Shown here: positions 44,729 through 50,702 of the stretch, piece by piece
Numbering within the stretch: the first letter of the stretch is position 1
Layout of the letters: each line of letters opens with the position of its first letter
The notes under the pieces: generated by a model
What the model saw: only the letters and a program-made list of their open reading frames with translations
Told to the model about the DNA's origin: nothing
Databases searched by the model: none
Position numbers and translations under genes: made by a program
Source of the DNA: Escherichia phage vB_EcoA_4HA11
Reading direction: 5' to 3' (one strand)
Sequence record: MN445184
Length of the DNA stretch: 64,000 nucleotides

Positions 44729-45178
44729 TCAGAAACGGGTATCGCTGACCGTTCTGTATCGCACACCCTGAAACTGTTTAGCGAGTTTAACAAATTCCAT
44801 CGCTGGCAAATCAACTTTGTAGACCTTCATGCGCTGTTTGCCGTCCATGTTCAACGCAGCGACAAATCGGTGAGAACCGTCAACAACGTAATTGTCAGAA
44901 GATACCCAAACTCGACCCATAGGTTTCTTATTTCTGATCTGCTTCATGATCTTCCAGACCTTCATTTTATTGATTTCGTTCTGGGTAAGACGAAGCATTT
45001 TGATGGGCACTTGCGCAGCATCTATAGACACGCCGTTGTCTTCAAGATATTTGTGAAAATCTTCTTGTTTGTCGGCATCGATTTGCGGCATAGAAGAACG
45101 AGAAAGCCCGAGGTTCCCAACAGGGATCCTCAGGCCATTTATGATATTCATCCAGTCAATAAAGGATGTAAGGAACAT
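44729..45178 (-). CDS. ParB/Srx-like nuclease-domain protein
   Basis: 149 aa; YVVDGSHRFVAA resembles the ParB N-terminal domain motif; weak. Confidence 0.4.
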   Translation of the reverse strand: MFLTSFIDWMNIINGLRIPVGNLGLSRSSMPQIDADKQEDFHKYLEDNGVSIDAAQVPIKMLRLTQNEINKMKVWKIMKQIRNKKPMGRVWVSSDNYVVDGSHRFVAALNMDGKQRMKVYKVDLPAMEFVKLAKQFQGVRYRTVSDTRF

Positions 45179-45668: not shown

Positions 45669-46124
45669 TCAAAATTGGAATGTTTGTTTCATAACGTTCA
45701 CCATGTAGGATGGATCTACTGGTGTTCTGTTATACGTGATCTTGCCCATGCCATTCAGACGTTCGACAATGCGCTCGGCATTCTCTTCTACTGCTGCCTG
45801 GGTCGGTTGGTAATCGTTCAAATAGATCGCGAGTTCCTGTCGATTGTCGGACGTCACCTGATTGCGGAGCGAAGGATAGTTGACAACATACCCACGAGAA
45901 ATCAGTTCGGCAACAAGCTGATCGTAACGCTCGATCAAATAAATGAGTTTGTCGCGGAAGAACAGCACATGACCTTCGTTGAGTTTGTACTGCTTTGGAG
46001 CGCCCTTGAGATTACGGCGTTTTCCATTCACCACGTTGAGGACAACAGGCGCAAGTTCTTTATACTCGGCAAGGAGGTGTTGGTCGCAAAGAGATTCAAC
46101 GGGAATAACATTGATGCGAGTCAT
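45669..46124 (-). CDS. denV: Pyrimidine-dimer DNA glycosylase (endonuclease V)
   Basis: ORF track 45669..46172; ATG 46124. MTRINVIPVESLCDQHLLAEYKELAPV...NGKRR closely parallels T4 DenV [27 protein letters not shown]. Confidence 0.85.
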   Translation of the reverse strand: MTRINVIPVESLCDQHLLAEYKELAPVVLNVVNGKRRNLKGAPKQYKLNEGHVLFFRDKLIYLIERYDQLVAELISRGYVVNYPSLRNQVTSDNRQELAIYLNDYQPTQAAVEENAERIVERLNGMGKITYNRTPVDPSYMVNVMKQTFQF

Positions 46125-46183
46125 GGTATAGTTCCTGCATTTCAAATCGACGGGGTAATCATACCCCGCCATAATTTATAGAA

Positions 46184-46423: not shown

Positions 46424-46517
46424 GTTATAATCAACCTATTCAATTTCTGACCAACCCCACGTTAGCCAGTTATTGAATAATACGGCAAATGTTTATTCAA
46501 GTAAAGCCCTTGAAAGT

Positions 46518-46544
46518 AAAAATCCCCAATAATATTGGGGATTT
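46518..46544 (-). terminator. Hairpin terminator downstream of the ACP-like gene
   Basis: AAATCCCCAAT-AAT-ATTGGGGATTT followed by TTTTAC on the minus strand. Confidence 0.55.
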
Positions 46545-46553
46545 CATGGATTA

Positions 46554-46871
46554 TTATTTGCAGAGAACAACGACGAGTTCAGCTAACTCTCCGAGGGTAG
46601 GATCATCTCCATGTTTACCCACCCACTCGTCACTAATTTCTACATCGTACTCTTCTTCGATTTCCATGACCAGCTCAATCATGTCAAGATCGTCACCACC
46701 GAGGTCATTCTTAACCCGTAACGGCGCTAATGCATCGATATTATCATCAATGTTATCAAACTTTTCCTTGTGATCCCCGTTGCGCCAAGTTTCCATGTTC
46801 AGGTTGTCACAAGCGTACTGAGCCAGAACACGCATTACTTCAACATAAGTTGGTTTGTTTGACATAAGCAT
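46554..46871 (-). CDS. Acyl-carrier-protein-like protein with Asp replacing the phosphopantetheinylated Ser
   Basis: 105 aa; DLGGDDLDMIELVMEIEEEYDVEISDE aligns with the ACP core [27 protein letters not shown]; the Ser position is Asp. Confidence 0.6.
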   Translation of the reverse strand: MLMSNKPTYVEVMRVLAQYACDNLNMETWRNGDHKEKFDNIDDNIDALAPLRVKNDLGGDDLDMIELVMEIEEEYDVEISDEWVGKHGDDPTLGELAELVVVLCK

Positions 46872-46908
46872 ATCTCAAAATGAAGGCGGGTTTCCCCGCC
46901 AGTTGAAT

Positions 46909-49296
46909 TTAGATTTTGACTTCTTTTTCAGCCAGTTCGGCAGTGACGGTGTATTTCACCCCATCAACTTCCACATCCATAGTGGATTCTTCCAAATCCA
47001 GGTCGGTAAACCAACCATGGCCTGCAACAATCCCATAAACTACCTTGGACAGCGTTTTGTTCAGGGCGCGGACTTCGTTGATAGCTGCTTTTGCTGCGTC
47101 TCCGATCCAACTTTCGATCAGCTTTTTCTGAGTCTCTTCCGGTACGCTGGTGATCATCGGTGATTTAACGAATGCATTGTATTCAGCCAGGGCATTAGCG
47201 ATCAGCTGATCAGCGACATTCAGTTTTTTACCGTCCGTCTGTTTTTTGATAACAGACGCGATGCTCGGCAGTGAAGATGCGCCTTTGATTTTCACATTCA
47301 ATTCACGACTCATATAGACATCGGTTGATTCTACAGAAGAAGTCTTCGGTGAAAATCCATAGTCGCGAATGCCGTTTGCTGACAGGAAATCAGCCGCTTC
47401 TTTGCCATATTTTGAAGCCAGACCAGTAGCGTTGCCTTTACCAACCAGTTCATCACGGTAGAATTTCAGAACTTTTTGCTTTGCCTTCAATGCTTCACGG
47501 CGCACATTGTCTGCAAAGAATTCAGCAGCACTGATATTCTTTGTCATGGCGCGGTTAACCATTGGGACACTTTCCAGATTTACAATGAAGACTTCCGGCC
47601 CACCAAACACATGAACACCCATGGCAGTCAAATCCTGTGCCACCTTAGCCCGAACAATCGGAGAATCTGCAGTGATAGGCATTGTTTTCAGGTTGATGAT
47701 ACCATCCTTGACAATAGTGTAATTGCGATAACGCCAGGTTCCCAGCTCTTCAGGAAGTTCATATTTCTTCTGTACAAACTCAGGCACAACAACCGTTCCG
47801 TGTTGAACTGTCTGCACACTGATGTTAGGACGTTCTGAATTGTAGACCAAATTGCTGATCGGGACAATCCCTTTATCATCTGCTGGATTGAATTCGGGGG
47901 TCCAATCTTCGTGCTCGGCCAGTTTGAGCGCCAGGGCTTTACGCTCTTCTTTAGAAGTCGCATTCGCAATCTCTTCGGCCAACTTGTCTTCGGTGTCATC
48001 AACTTTCTGTACAGTACCGCGCCCAATGCTCTTGTAAGAGAATAGCGGATGCTTGGTGACGATAGAGACATCGGCTTCGGCCAGGTAGGTCAAAACATCA
48101 ACAATGGTCGTTGCATCTTCAGCCGGAACCATATTATAATCGATGCCATCAACTCCTCGCAGAGATTCGTCTACGATAGCCTGAGTCAGATCGACTTTGA
48201 TGTTGGAATAGTCCTGCTTGGTGAAACAGTTGCTGTACTGTTTGATGAAGTGGACGTCACCCGTCTTCTTCAGCGCGGCCCAGACCAGATCGGCGTCCAT
48301 GGTATACACGCCGTAAAATGCCAGCACGTATGCCGCTTGGATGTCTGCCAGATTATCCAGCTGGTCGATCATGTTGGGGTTTACAACCCACAGCTGAGAA
48401 ACGCTTTCAGGGATGCTGACGTGGCCAATAGGGTGCTCTTCATCAGGATGCACAGCTAAAACAGTCGCCACGCCATTTTCAACATAAATGGCATGGGTAT
48501 AAACCAGAGGAACATCGACTACAACTTTCGGTGAAGAAGTTTTCAGCACGTTTTCCAATTCGGTCTGATATTCATTCTGGCCTTCGGCGAATACGTGGGT
48601 CGCACCAGAACGTTCTGCCATTAGCGCCAGCAGTTCGCGATTACAATACCAACCGTATTCGATGAAGGTAATGTTATCAAACGCTTTGGGCAGTACTTCA
48701 GCGGCATCCAGGATTTCATTAGAACGCCAGCAGTTGTCATATCCGTCGGTCATGAATGCCAGGTTGTTAACATAACCAGGTTTATTCAGGCTAATGGCAG
48801 TTTCCGCAGCCAGTTTCAGCGGCTCAACAAAACCAGTACAACCAGAAGGCTTCAGGAAACGGTCAATTAGATTATTGATCTCACTGAGGTCGGTTGCACT
48901 GTTAATCTGACGTCCGGCAAATACCGTTCCGAAATCACCGCGAGATGAAAAGTAAAGGATGCTCACAGTATCTTCCGGTTTCACCAGGGAAGGCAGGTTC
49001 TCCTTCAGATGCTTACGGACTTCTGGAAGTGAACGATACATGGAACCGGAGATATCCACAACGATTACATGGTTAGACGGCGCGACGGTCGCAACCGCAT
49101 TCTTAAATGTTAATGATTCAATCATCGTTTTGACCTTTTTGGGCTTTGGAGTGTGTTTGGAGTTCGCGTCGGCGTTCTCCAGCATAGTTTCAATGAAATC
49201 CCGGTTGTTTTCCATTTGGGCGACCAGAACATCACTGGGACGGAATGAATTGTCAAGACAATCAAGTCCGGCGCGTTTTAATTTGTTGTCGGTCAT
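46909..49296 (-). CDS. Large von Willebrand factor A (vWA) domain protein
   Basis: ORF track 46909..49323 (TTG); ATG at 49296. HVIVVDISGSMYRS is a MIDAS-type DxSxS motif, with FMTDGYD downstream. Confidence 0.6.
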   Translation of the reverse strand: MTDNKLKRAGLDCLDNSFRPSDVLVAQMENNRDFIETMLENADANSKHTPKPKKVKTMIESLTFKNAVATVAPSNHVIVVDISGSMYRSLPEVRKHLKENLPSLVKPEDTVSILYFSSRGDFGTVFAGRQINSATDLSEINNLIDRFLKPSGCTGFVEPLKLAAETAISLNKPGYVNNLAFMTDGYDNCWRSNEILDAAEVLPKAFDNITFIEYGWYCNRELLALMAERSGATHVFAEGQNEYQTELENVLKTSSPKVVVDVPLVYTHAIYVENGVATVLAVHPDEEHPIGHVSIPESVSQLWVVNPNMIDQLDNLADIQAAYVLAFYGVYTMDADLVWAALKKTGDVHFIKQYSNCFTKQDYSNIKVDLTQAIVDESLRGVDGIDYNMVPAEDATTIVDVLTYLAEADVSIVTKHPLFSYKSIGRGTVQKVDDTEDKLAEEIANATSKEERKALALKLAEHEDWTPEFNPADDKGIVPISNLVYNSERPNISVQTVQHGTVVVPEFVQKKYELPEELGTWRYRNYTIVKDGIINLKTMPITADSPIVRAKVAQDLTAMGVHVFGGPEVFIVNLESVPMVNRAMTKNISAAEFFADNVRREALKAKQKVLKFYRDELVGKGNATGLASKYGKEAADFLSANGIRDYGFSPKTSSVESTDVYMSRELNVKIKGASSLPSIASVIKKQTDGKKLNVADQLIANALAEYNAFVKSPMITSVPEETQKKLIESWIGDAAKAAINEVRALNKTLSKVVYGIVAGHGWFTDLDLEESTMDVEVDGVKYTVTAELAEKEVKI

Positions 49297-49385
49297 CAGG
49301 CTCTCGTGAGTTATATTTCCCAACTATTTCAACATGGGACTATTATATTACGACAGGCGGTATTGATGCCAATTAATATAATAAA

Positions 49386-49413
49386 AATGCCCGATTGAAT
49401 ATAACCGGGCATT
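49386..49413 (-). terminator. Hairpin terminator
   Basis: AATGCCCG-loop-CGGGCATT with TTTTTAT on the minus strand. Confidence 0.55.
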
Positions 49414-49446: not shown

Positions 49447-50319
49447 TTATTTAAAGGAGTCTACAATGGATTTGAAAATATAATCTTTGGAGCGTTGTTG
49501 TACCGGGAGTTCTCCATACGGAACCATGCAAGGGTGTTGCTTGGTCTGAGGGTCTTTGACTGGGCCATACACCCATCCCTCAGCCTCCTTCTCCGCCATC
49601 CAGCTCTCATGCGATTCGCTGGGCTTACGATCACCAGTGAGATGGAAGATAACACCTTTGCAAGCGCTCTCACGCTGCCAGGCCGGAGATTGTTCCCAAG
49701 GCAGTTGAGAGTCGTCACCAACAGACTTGCAGTATGCGCGGTTGGCTTCATGACAAATCTTGGCGATGCGCAGAACCAATGGCGAATAAGTGAGATCGAG
49801 TTTGGAGTTGGCGCGCAGGAAATCACTAACAGCCTTACGAGATTTGGCGTTGTGAGAGTCAACAACAAGTTCCATGTCATCCGGCCCACAAACGAAAGAC
49901 GCCAAGAAGCGCTCGCCATTTTCCGCTCTGAACATCACGTCCTGAATCATCACATTGAAGCCGAGGTGATAGGCCGGGCAGAGGGCGCTACGTTCAACAG
50001 CGTATTGATCGATCCGGATCTCTGCCGTTTCCGTGGCTTTGGCCAACAGATCTTGTTCAACAAGCGCCCGGTACGCCTCCAGCTGCCACAGCTGGTCGAA
50101 GGTGTTATTGTAGGAAATCTCTTTGCCCAGGGCTTCATCGAAGTTGGCCGGGTCTATGGATGTGCTGGGCTTGGTGCCGTGAACGACGAAGCCGTTATCC
50201 ATCTTGAAATGACAAGTGATAGCCCGGTGACCGCCGACTTCGCGGTCTTCGTAAATCACCTCAGCGATATGTGACTTCAGGACTTCAGGAGTGAGTTTGA
50301 TGCCAGTACGAGTTGTCAT
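49447..50319 (-). CDS. Gp49-like N-terminal domain plus RyR-repeat protein
   Basis: 290 aa; N-terminal GIKLTPEVL...ITCHFKMDNGFVVHG; C-terminal WMAEKEAEGWVYGPVKDPQTKQHPCMVPYGELP matches the RyR-domain signature as recalled. Confidence 0.5.
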   Translation of the reverse strand: MTTRTGIKLTPEVLKSHIAEVIYEDREVGGHRAITCHFKMDNGFVVHGTKPSTSIDPANFDEALGKEISYNNTFDQLWQLEAYRALVEQDLLAKATETAEIRIDQYAVERSALCPAYHLGFNVMIQDVMFRAENGERFLASFVCGPDDMELVVDSHNAKSRKAVSDFLRANSKLDLTYSPLVLRIAKICHEANRAYCKSVGDDSQLPWEQSPAWQRESACKGVIFHLTGDRKPSESHESWMAEKEAEGWVYGPVKDPQTKQHPCMVPYGELPVQQRSKDYIFKSIVDSFK

Positions 50320-50327
50320 GTGTTATC

Positions 50328-50702
50328 CTATGATATTTGTTTACAGACCTCCACTACTTTACGGCACATGACGATATCGAACAAGCCGATATGGCAATCG
50401 CGCTTCTTGATCCCCAGATTATGAGCCAGCCAGCTGTAAGCATCACTCCTGCTCCTCTGCCCACTTTTCCAGATAGGGTCAAACGACCTATGAGCTTCCT
50501 GCTTAGCAGCACGGAGAGCGGCATTCGCCATCCTTCCCAGAGGTTGTCTACCATCCCCATGGGTATGGCAACCCACACGAGCGTCGCATGGCGAGCATCC
50601 CCAGAACTTCAGTTTGTGTAGATCTGGGCGATGAGGGTAGAGTACATCACCACTGACGTATTTGGCAGGAAGACCGCAATAATCACAAATAACTTGTTTC
50701 AT
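50328..50702 (-). CDS. Cys/His-rich zinc-binding protein
   Basis: 124 aa; ICDYCG...GCSPCDARVGCHTH. Confidence 0.4.
   Translation of the reverse strand: MKQVICDYCGLPAKYVSGDVLYPHRPDLHKLKFWGCSPCDARVGCHTHGDGRQPLGRMANAALRAAKQEAHRSFDPIWKSGQRSRSDAYSWLAHNLGIKKRDCHIGLFDIVMCRKVVEVCKQIS

Follow-up and report, generated by a model that had tools for sequence, protein, structure and literature searches.

A phage protein with a predicted acyl carrier protein fold and an acidic residue in place of the carrier serine

AcpP, the acyl carrier protein (ACP) of bacterial type II fatty acid synthase (FAS), is among the most connected and most abundant enterobacterial proteins. Its Ser36 is the attachment site of the 4'-phosphopantetheine arm, which known phosphopantetheinyl transferases (PPTases) transfer to the hydroxyl of a Ser, and its recognition-helix residues (D35, L37, D38, E41, M44, E47, E48 and D56) are the contact points for basic patches on AcpS, on the Fab and Lpx enzymes and on other partners. 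The carrier domains of polyketide synthases (PKS) and non-ribosomal peptide synthetases lack most of this docking set. For ACPs without the arm it has been reported that apo-ACP inhibits the glycerol-3-phosphate acyltransferase PlsB more strongly than holo-ACP, that overproduction of ACP stops growth (PMC3896788), that the ATPase of MukB is stimulated equally by apo- and holo-AcpP (PMC8602292), and that the Plasmodium mACP, which has no 4'-phosphopantetheine group, is essential as a binding subunit (10.1101/2021.04.13.439690). Here we describe an ACP-like gene in a 64,000 nucleotide stretch of Escherichia phage vB_EcoA_4HA11 (sequence record MN445184; this whole stretch is called the window, and position 1 is its first letter). 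The gene lies next to that of a protein with a von Willebrand factor A (vWA) domain, and its product, termed pseudo-ACP in this work, has Asp where AcpP has the carrier Ser. From sequence comparison pseudo-ACP is real, conserved and mis-annotated, and the hypothesis that it is a decoy in the host is testable.

The gene family as such is known and is routinely annotated as "acyl carrier protein" (roughly 270 genomes). A limited search of the searchable literature returned no paper on the missing Ser, on the function of the gene or on the timing of Kuttervirus transcripts, and the terms "acyl carrier", "vWA" and "Willebrand" are absent from a 2024 review of the Ackermannviridae. The label "acyl carrier protein" or "auxiliary metabolic gene" in about 270 phage genomes implies a role in lipid or polyketide synthesis that the protein most probably cannot have, and needs correcting. 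Because members of the Ackermannviridae (CBA120, ViI, S117, LIMEstone) find use in biocontrol and therapy, their conserved host-interaction genes matter.

The ACP-like gene and its missing carrier serine

The window derives from a Kuttervirus (Ackermannviridae; CBA120/ViI group): over the 3.1 kb round the pseudo-ACP gene it shares 99.9% identity with Salmonella phage S117 and 98-99.5% with many further genomes of the genus. Phages of this genus are lytic myoviruses of about 157 kb. In the gene maps of CBA120, LIMEstone1 and kage the block around the locus runs rightward and holds genes of replication and repair as well as small accessory genes, and the pseudo-ACP gene itself lies among replication and host-takeover genes. 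The features of the gene are the following.

46554..46865, minus strand: ACP-like (pseudo-ACP) gene, 103 amino acids from the second ATG; the open reading frame (ORF) reaches the ATG at 46871, giving 105 amino acids
46647..46706, minus strand: residues 56-75 (DLGGDDLDMIELVMEIEEEY), the motif of helix II or "recognition helix", aligned colinearly with AcpP D31-F50
46689..46691, minus strand: codon GAT of Asp61, the first residue of predicted helix II, aligned with AcpP Ser36

Residues are numbered throughout on the 105 amino acid ORF (46554-46871, minus strand). The start is likely the second ATG (46865, 103 amino acids), as judged from the CBA120 and kage annotations and from the family alignment.

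Pseudo-ACP matches the Pfam family PF00550 (PP-binding) with 30.7 bits (E 3.9e-7; cut-off 20.8) and, over its full length, phrog_4154 "acyl carrier protein" (E 1.4e-56), which PHROGs places in the category "moron, auxiliary metabolic gene and host takeover"; the match to PF14573 (25.9 bits) is below the cut-off of 32. A phmmer search of the Protein Data Bank (PDB) sequences returned ACPs only, the best being that of B. subtilis (E 5.5e-8). The best NCBIfam matches are the FAS AcpP models, yet every ACP model stays below its curated cut-off (best 38.5 versus 71 bits). BLASTP against E. coli AcpP aligns the segment DLGGDDLDMIELVMEIEEEYDVEISDEWVGK without gaps at 61% identity (E 1e-10), and DLGGDDLDMIELVMEIEEEYDVEISDE is likewise aligned with AcpP without gaps. 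Like AcpP the protein is strongly acidic, with 26 Asp and Glu against 9 Lys and Arg, a net charge of about -17 and an isoelectric point (pI) of 4.1.

An AlphaFold (AF2) model built from 20 homologues has a predicted local distance difference test score (pLDDT) of 87 and a predicted template modelling score (pTM) of 0.79, and shows the four-helix bundle of the carrier fold. The helices comprise residues 9-23 (I), 61-75 (II), 81-86 (III) and 93-103 (IV), helix II beginning exactly at residue 61, and an insertion of 25 residues, modelled as three short helices within residues 27-48, separates helices I and II. All matches listed by Foldseek against the PDB are ACPs, with target-normalised TM scores of 0.7-0.8; the ACP chain of the AcpS-ACP complex 1F80 ranks first. 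The family also has conserved elements without an AcpP counterpart, namely PTYVEVM, W83 and GDDPT.

The D-S-L motif which holds the attachment Ser at the N-terminus of helix II in ACPs is not found in pseudo-ACP, where Asp61 stands instead. Around this site conservation is high: D56, L57, G58, D60, L62, D63, E66, M69, E72 and E73 are invariant in 21 aligned sequences, the counterparts of the AcpP docking residues named above are invariant within a closer set of relatives, and the core D-[DE]-L-D-x-I-E-x-x-M-x-x-E is kept family-wide, including in relatives with 22-50% identity. By tblastn the gene was detected in 270 phage records; these are essentially all from Ackermannviridae, with odd host labels on a few. 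A scan of IMG/VR with the ACP-like profile found only Ackermannviridae-type genomes of 152-162 kb. Ser never occupies the carrier site in any family member read, down to those only 22-50% identical. The site reads DLGGD[D/E]LD without exception in 19 cluster representatives from a collection of 5.8 billion proteins; when 1.84 billion representatives were searched with a profile, eight full-length family members were recovered (down to E 3e-11), each with D or E, and three divergent metagenomic contigs (L008, L009 and L010) have D, E and D. In Erwinia phage vB_EamM-Bue1 (MG973030.1) the 440 nucleotide gap after the vWA gene contains an unannotated ORF of 99 amino acids (L005:6310-6609), a very divergent pseudo-ACP with HFAMDELDYIEFIMELEDD, in which the "DLG" is altered and Glu is at the Ser site.

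No other Ser of pseudo-ACP is conserved among the aligned relatives, S4 and S80 being variable in divergent members. Asp and Glu both recur across deep branches and the other one-step replacements (N, G, A, V, H, Y) were never seen, which argues for selection for a carboxylate and not for a mere loss of Ser. The pairwise ratio of nonsynonymous to synonymous substitution rates (dN/dS) of the gene is 0.03-0.16; the gene is therefore functional and under strong purifying selection. A frame shift or sequencing error hiding a Ser is excluded by the gap-free, single-frame alignment with AcpP, by the GAT codon and by the same residue class in the 270 records. An antisense ORF at 46489-46773 is rich in Ser and was judged to be a spurious shadow ORF. 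Motif, fold and substitution are all real and go far beyond what chance would give. On these comparisons pseudo-ACP should not be classed as an acyl carrier protein, having the predicted fold and lacking the attachment Ser.

An initial annotation of this DNA had described a 105 amino acid protein with an ACP helix II motif in which the carrier Ser is replaced by Asp. The ORF is present, the alignments to AcpP, PF00550 and phrog_4154 and the confidently predicted four-helix fold agree with this description, and D61 falls on Ser36, with D or E in every relative read; the alignment runs through the motif in one frame. The same annotation stated that the protein cannot carry acyl groups, and this is well supported. 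Known PPTases act on the hydroxyl of a Ser, and pseudo-ACP has no further conserved one, so that it would not be phosphopantetheinylated and would carry nothing. The host has its own AcpS, but pseudo-ACP offers it no Ser to modify, and among the annotated genes of kage, a close relative with a complete genome, there is no PPTase, FAS or PKS gene, a result at the level of annotation in a genome with about half of its genes "hypothetical". That the protein is a mimic binding ACP partners of the host is plausible from the invariant docking residues, from the exclusive presence of carboxylates at the Ser site and from the published activity of unmodified ACP. The wording "mimic of holo-ACP" exceeds the evidence, as D or E can imitate the charge of the phosphodiester but has nothing to stand for the pantetheine arm, and a role as helix N-cap is equally conceivable.

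If it is not a carrier, pseudo-ACP would work by protein-protein binding. The reading we prefer, with some reserve, is that the gene encodes a phage-specific non-carrier ("pseudo") ACP acting by binding, likeliest as a decoy for the partners of host AcpP. We favour the decoy because the conserved surface is precisely the one used by AcpP, because unmodified ACP is known to be potent towards PlsB and MukB, and because Plasmodium mACP is a precedent for a Ser-less ACP retained purely as a binding subunit. An abundant and unmodifiable decoy would dock via helix II onto the basic AcpP-binding patches of at least one host partner, the candidates being those on which unmodified ACP is already known to be active, i.e. 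PlsB (by inhibition), the neck of MukB and AcpS. With its carboxylate at the Ser site the decoy may imitate the negative charge which the phosphodiester brings to Ser36, and the outcome would be that lipid or chromosome functions of the host are redirected or shut down during infection.

Several points weigh against the decoy. SpoT binds holo-ACP only (PMC3896788), so that not every partner would accept an armless protein. The acidic residue in the first turn of helix II could be a structural replacement capping the helix and not a phosphomimic, and two parts in which it departs from AcpP, the 25-residue insertion and the tryptophan-containing "W-x-G-x-x-G-DDPT" segment, may serve some other, phage-specific partner. 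The searchable literature held no data on expression timing or toxicity of the gene, and the limit given above for the kage annotation counts here as well.

The neighbouring vWA gene and the transcription signals

The features surrounding the pseudo-ACP gene are the following.

46518..46544, minus strand: terminator-like hairpin after the stop codons of the ACP-like gene, AAATCCCCAAT-ATT-ATTGGGGATTT plus U-run
46885..46900, minus strand: GC hairpin GGCGGG-GAAA-CCCGCC followed by TTCATTTT, between the vWA stop and the ACP-like start
46909..49125, minus strand: gene of the vWA protein with a metal-ion-dependent adhesion site (MIDAS), 738 amino acids (conserved model), starting with the ATG at 49125, stop codon at 46909-46911
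49042..49056, minus strand: MIDAS motif D24-I-S26-G-S28, completed by T97 and D127 (738 amino acid numbering)
49126..49296, minus strand: small upstream ORF, 58 amino acids in S117, ATG at 49296, matching phrog_11447
49345..49372, minus strand: sigma-70-like promoter match TTGGCA-16-TAATAT (consensus scan only), upstream of the block of small ORF, vWA and ACP-like gene
49386-49413, minus strand: terminator-like hairpin of the upstream gene, preceding the promoter match

The vWA protein (PF00092, E 1.4e-7) is composed of an N-terminal part of about 290 amino acids, comprising the vWA domain and a beta-sandwich, and a C-terminal part of about 450 amino acids without an informative match; its AlphaFold model is confident (pLDDT 89), and the Rossmann-like fold of vWA domains is present. 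The MIDAS motif is complete, D24, S26 and S28 being nearly invariant and T97 and D127 invariant in 70 homologues. The family is broad among large myoviruses: of the candidates scored, 306 proteins reach E <= 0.001, and 504 phage records have a match. In virions of LIMEstone1 the vWA protein was found with 6 peptides and 11% coverage (PMC3296691), and it is thus a minor virion component in this phage; virions of Sajous1 yielded one peptide each of the vWA and the ACP-like protein (PMC10892097).

The initial annotation had given the vWA protein about 800 amino acids. Its MIDAS-type vWA domain is indeed intact and conserved, but the gene encodes 738 amino acids and the longer ORF is a fusion. Compared to S117 the window has a two nucleotide insertion "AC" in CAAACACAC (CAAACAC in S117), about 30-35 nucleotides upstream of the vWA ATG at 49125, which fuses the 58 amino acid ORF in frame with the vWA gene into an ORF of 804 amino acids (49126-49323 region of the window). 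In CBA120, LIMEstone1, S117, kage, L008, L009 and L010 the small ORF and the vWA gene are separate with ends overlapping by a few bases, and PHROGs divides the 804 amino acid ORF into two families. The insertion could be a real variant or an assembly error.

The two genes had also been assigned to one transcription unit ending in a strong terminator. The terminator is confirmed at sequence level by the hairpin and U-run at 46518-46544, for which an equivalent is found after the ACP-like gene in CBA120, LIMEstone1, L008, L009 and L010 and not clearly in Bue1. The single unit holds in part: the genes are adjacent and on the same strand, but the GC hairpin and T-tract at 46885-46900 lie between them, so that there is no plain uninterrupted unit. 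Individual folds of LIMEstone1, Bue1, L008, L009 and L010 show, at the same intergenic place, a GC hairpin whose stem differs in sequence and which leads into a T-rich run, and the annotators of LIMEstone1 marked a terminator there. RNAalifold on a MAFFT alignment of this hairpin yielded two compensatory pairs only, the alignment being poor, and the individual folds are the better evidence. The hairpin is probably a partial terminator or attenuator, or else a stabiliser of the RNA 3' end, and its conserved position with differing stems suggests an element setting the ratio of vWA and ACP-like products. No promoter fits between this hairpin and the start of the ACP-like gene, whose expression is therefore presumably due to read-through from the promoter match at 49345-49372.

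The order small ORF, vWA gene and ACP-like gene is kept in all Ackermannviridae-type genomes and contigs examined, including Bue1 (51% vWA identity) and three metagenomic contigs. No ACP-like neighbour is present at the full-length vWA homologues of Slopekvirus KP15, Pseudomonas phage pf16, Shewanella phage Thanatos-1 and Vibrio phage VmeM-32, and a functional coupling inferred from co-occurrence outside the Ackermannviridae thus fails in the four other phage groups checked. For the same genome pairs the identity to the window is 84, 76, 73, 71 and 51% for the vWA protein and 61, 33, 50, 33 and 22% for the ACP-like protein, and outside helix II pseudo-ACP diverges about twice as fast as its neighbour. 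The pairing is thus a family-specific order in a virus family with generally conserved gene order, and is weak evidence for coupling.

Further genes of the region deserve mention. At 44729-45178 (minus strand) a 149 amino acid protein weakly resembles ParB-N (phrog_1033, E 0.0016). The LIMEstone1 gene at the corresponding position carries the annotation of a confirmed structural protein, and Sajous1 virions contained a "ParB N-terminal domain" protein with 11 peptides (PMC10892097); the window protein may be another packaged protein near the vWA gene. The 167 amino acid gene at 45669-46172 (minus strand) matches pyrimidine-dimer glycosylase (denV; PF03013, E 5e-13), while at the same position CBA120 (L001:8741-9247) is annotated "RNA polymerase ADP-ribosylase" and L010 (L010:4029-4535) has a Mod_ADP_RT Pfam match, a discrepancy due either to mis-annotation or to gene replacement. 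Upstream of the block the window encodes a 290 amino acid protein with N4 gp49/Sf6 gp66 and RyR domains (49447-50319, minus strand) and a DUF3268 zinc-finger protein (50328-50702, minus strand), both conserved in relatives. Directly upstream of the block L008 carries a phosphoribosyltransferase and an NAPRTase-family gene of the NAD salvage type (L008:2244-4759), and LIMEstone1 has a short gene annotated nadV at the same spot (L002:4844-5176); from these differences the spot appears to accept accessory genes.

Serine-less ACP domains elsewhere and the rival readings

A scan of bacteria, taking one genome per species and the pattern D[DE]LDx[VI]E[ILV][VIT]M, identified 79 loci (L029-L107) with ACP-like domains which have Asp or Glu for the carrier Ser. 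Many of these, from Planctomycetota, Verrucomicrobiota and Acidobacteriota, have a signal peptide or are lipoproteins; in Streptomyces and Kitasatospora some form the C-terminal domain of nSTAND5-NTPase/TPR proteins of about 1,050 amino acids (L039, L060, L061, L064). Further fusions are to cytochrome c and an FGE-sulfatase (L041), to a GlcNAc 2-epimerase (L033) and to Zn-ribbon proteins (L045, L066). This recurrence makes the acidic-for-Ser ACP domain a recurrent non-carrier module, and the same swap in lipoproteins and STAND NTPases suggests that the ACP fold serves non-carrier purposes more broadly. In the 150 best profile hits the Ser column holds Ser in 98 cases, D or E in 40 and another residue in five (T, T, G, C, A), a count biased by a query profile which rewards D or E. 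In BFVD many unrelated phages, including PhiW-14 and pf16, encode ACP-like proteins. The ACP-like proteins of PhiW-14 and pf16 raised the idea of a link to thymidine hypermodification, which we do not favour: the annotated kinase and thymidylate-synthase-like genes, which we take to belong to that pathway, are about 40 kb distant from the pseudo-ACP gene, and we know of no carrier requirement for it.

One rival to the decoy makes pseudo-ACP the dedicated partner of the adjacent vWA protein. The invariant carboxylate which stands in for the Ser, on the exposed N-terminus of a helix, would fill the remaining metal coordination site of the MIDAS, as ligand Asp or Glu residues do for integrin I-domains, and the small acidic protein would then be a chaperone, plug or co-packaged cofactor of a minor virion protein. 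The intact and conserved MIDAS, the interchangeability of D and E, which suits a metal ligand, the virion association of the vWA protein in LIMEstone1 and the single peptides of both proteins from Sajous1 all fit this, as does the gene order in every Ackermannviridae-type genome or contig examined; however, gene order is conserved throughout the virus family anyway, and the vWA homologues of KP15, pf16, Thanatos-1 and VmeM-32 do without an ACP-like neighbour. Moreover, a conserved terminator-like hairpin parts the two genes, their products evolve at very different rates, a term search of the LIMEstone1 paper did not find the ACP-like protein in its virion protein table, and with 26 acidic residues a MIDAS ligand need not be residue 61. 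Mechanistically attractive and with synteny as its evidence, such a partnership seems to us unlikely. We put at a similarly low level the possibility that pseudo-ACP is a structural subunit or scaffold of another phage complex, an acidic adaptor on the ACP fold which is unrelated to the partners of host AcpP and comparable to the ACP in respiratory complex I or to Plasmodium mACP with Isd11-Nfs1, the D or E then capping the helix in place of a needless Ser. The Plasmodium precedent speaks for it, as do the recurrence of Ser-less ACP domains in bacterial secreted lipoproteins and at STAND-NTPase/TPR C-termini, which points to a generic binding module, and the conserved PTYVEVM, W83 and GDDPT, which AcpP does not have. 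A scaffold has, however, no obvious need for the full AcpP docking set, and the gene neighbourhood yields no candidate phage partner besides the vWA protein.

Small acidic decoys are common in phages, and a pI of 4.1, a net charge of about -17 and a position in a region of small early or accessory genes would also suit an acidic DNA mimic or anti-restriction protein (similar to Ocr, ArdA or gp5.9) built on the ACP fold. AcpP itself is equally acidic, however, conservation is centred on the exact AcpP helix II motif and not on an overall charge pattern, and the predicted shape is a compact ACP bundle and not an elongated DNA-like one, which makes this very improbable. Closest to refuted is the idea of a genuine carrier loaded in an unconventional way, or of a decaying remnant of a captured acpP. 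Most records do annotate an "acyl carrier protein" and the protein does exceed the Pfam PP-binding threshold, but it has no Ser at the site and no other conserved one, its scores are far below all curated NCBIfam ACP cut-offs (38.5 versus 71 bits), and no PPTase or acyl-handling enzymes are annotated in kage; a remnant is excluded by the dN/dS of 0.03-0.16 together with the conservation in about 270 genomes.

The decoy of host AcpP partners thus stays our preferred reading. Its widest form is doubtful: an unmodifiable, charge-mimicking AcpP decoy would jam the host ACP hub (e.g. PlsB, AcpS or MukBEF) for takeover, and would belong to a wider "acidic-for-serine" class which includes the bacterial secreted lipoproteins and the C-terminal modules of STAND NTPases and for which a limited literature search found no describing paper. 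If the decoy is true, a phage-made, unconvertible look-alike of AcpP would be a new route of host takeover and a ready-made probe for those AcpP contacts that do not need the prosthetic group.

Comparison with known systems

The neighbouring vWA protein is related in its N-terminal architecture to proteins with a vWA domain and beta-sandwich of the 4fx5, ITIH1 and ArnB/Sec23-24 type, from which it differs by its length of 738 amino acids with a C-terminal part of about 450 residues lacking an informative structural match, and by being a minor virion component.

With AcpP of the bacterial type II FAS (PF00550; TIGR00517) pseudo-ACP shares the four-helix fold, 61% identity over helices II-III, the same recognition helix and the same pI. 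In distinction to AcpP, the phage protein has D or E for Ser36 and would thus lack the prosthetic group, 25 inserted residues separate its helices I and II, and its C-terminal segment is W-x-G-x-x-G-DDPT; it scores below every curated NCBIfam ACP cut-off and is encoded by a lytic phage without annotated FAS or PPTase genes.

Pseudo-ACP has the properties of a Ser-less non-carrier ACP, with the fold kept, the site lost and the gene under selection. The substitution at the Ser site of Plasmodium mACP is presumably hydrophobic and not acidic. The Plasmodium falciparum mACP is alike in having lost the attachment site while keeping the ACP fold and being retained under selection, in its case as a binding subunit (10.1101/2021.04.13.439690); it differs in being a eukaryotic, organellar housekeeping protein with Isd11-Nfs1 as partner, whereas the phage protein is viral. 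The apo-AcpP of E. coli resembles pseudo-ACP as an ACP body without the arm which has been published as biologically active (PMC3896788, PMC8602292). It is, however, a transient precursor which is converted by AcpS, while the phage protein would be permanently unconvertible and has a negative charge at the site.

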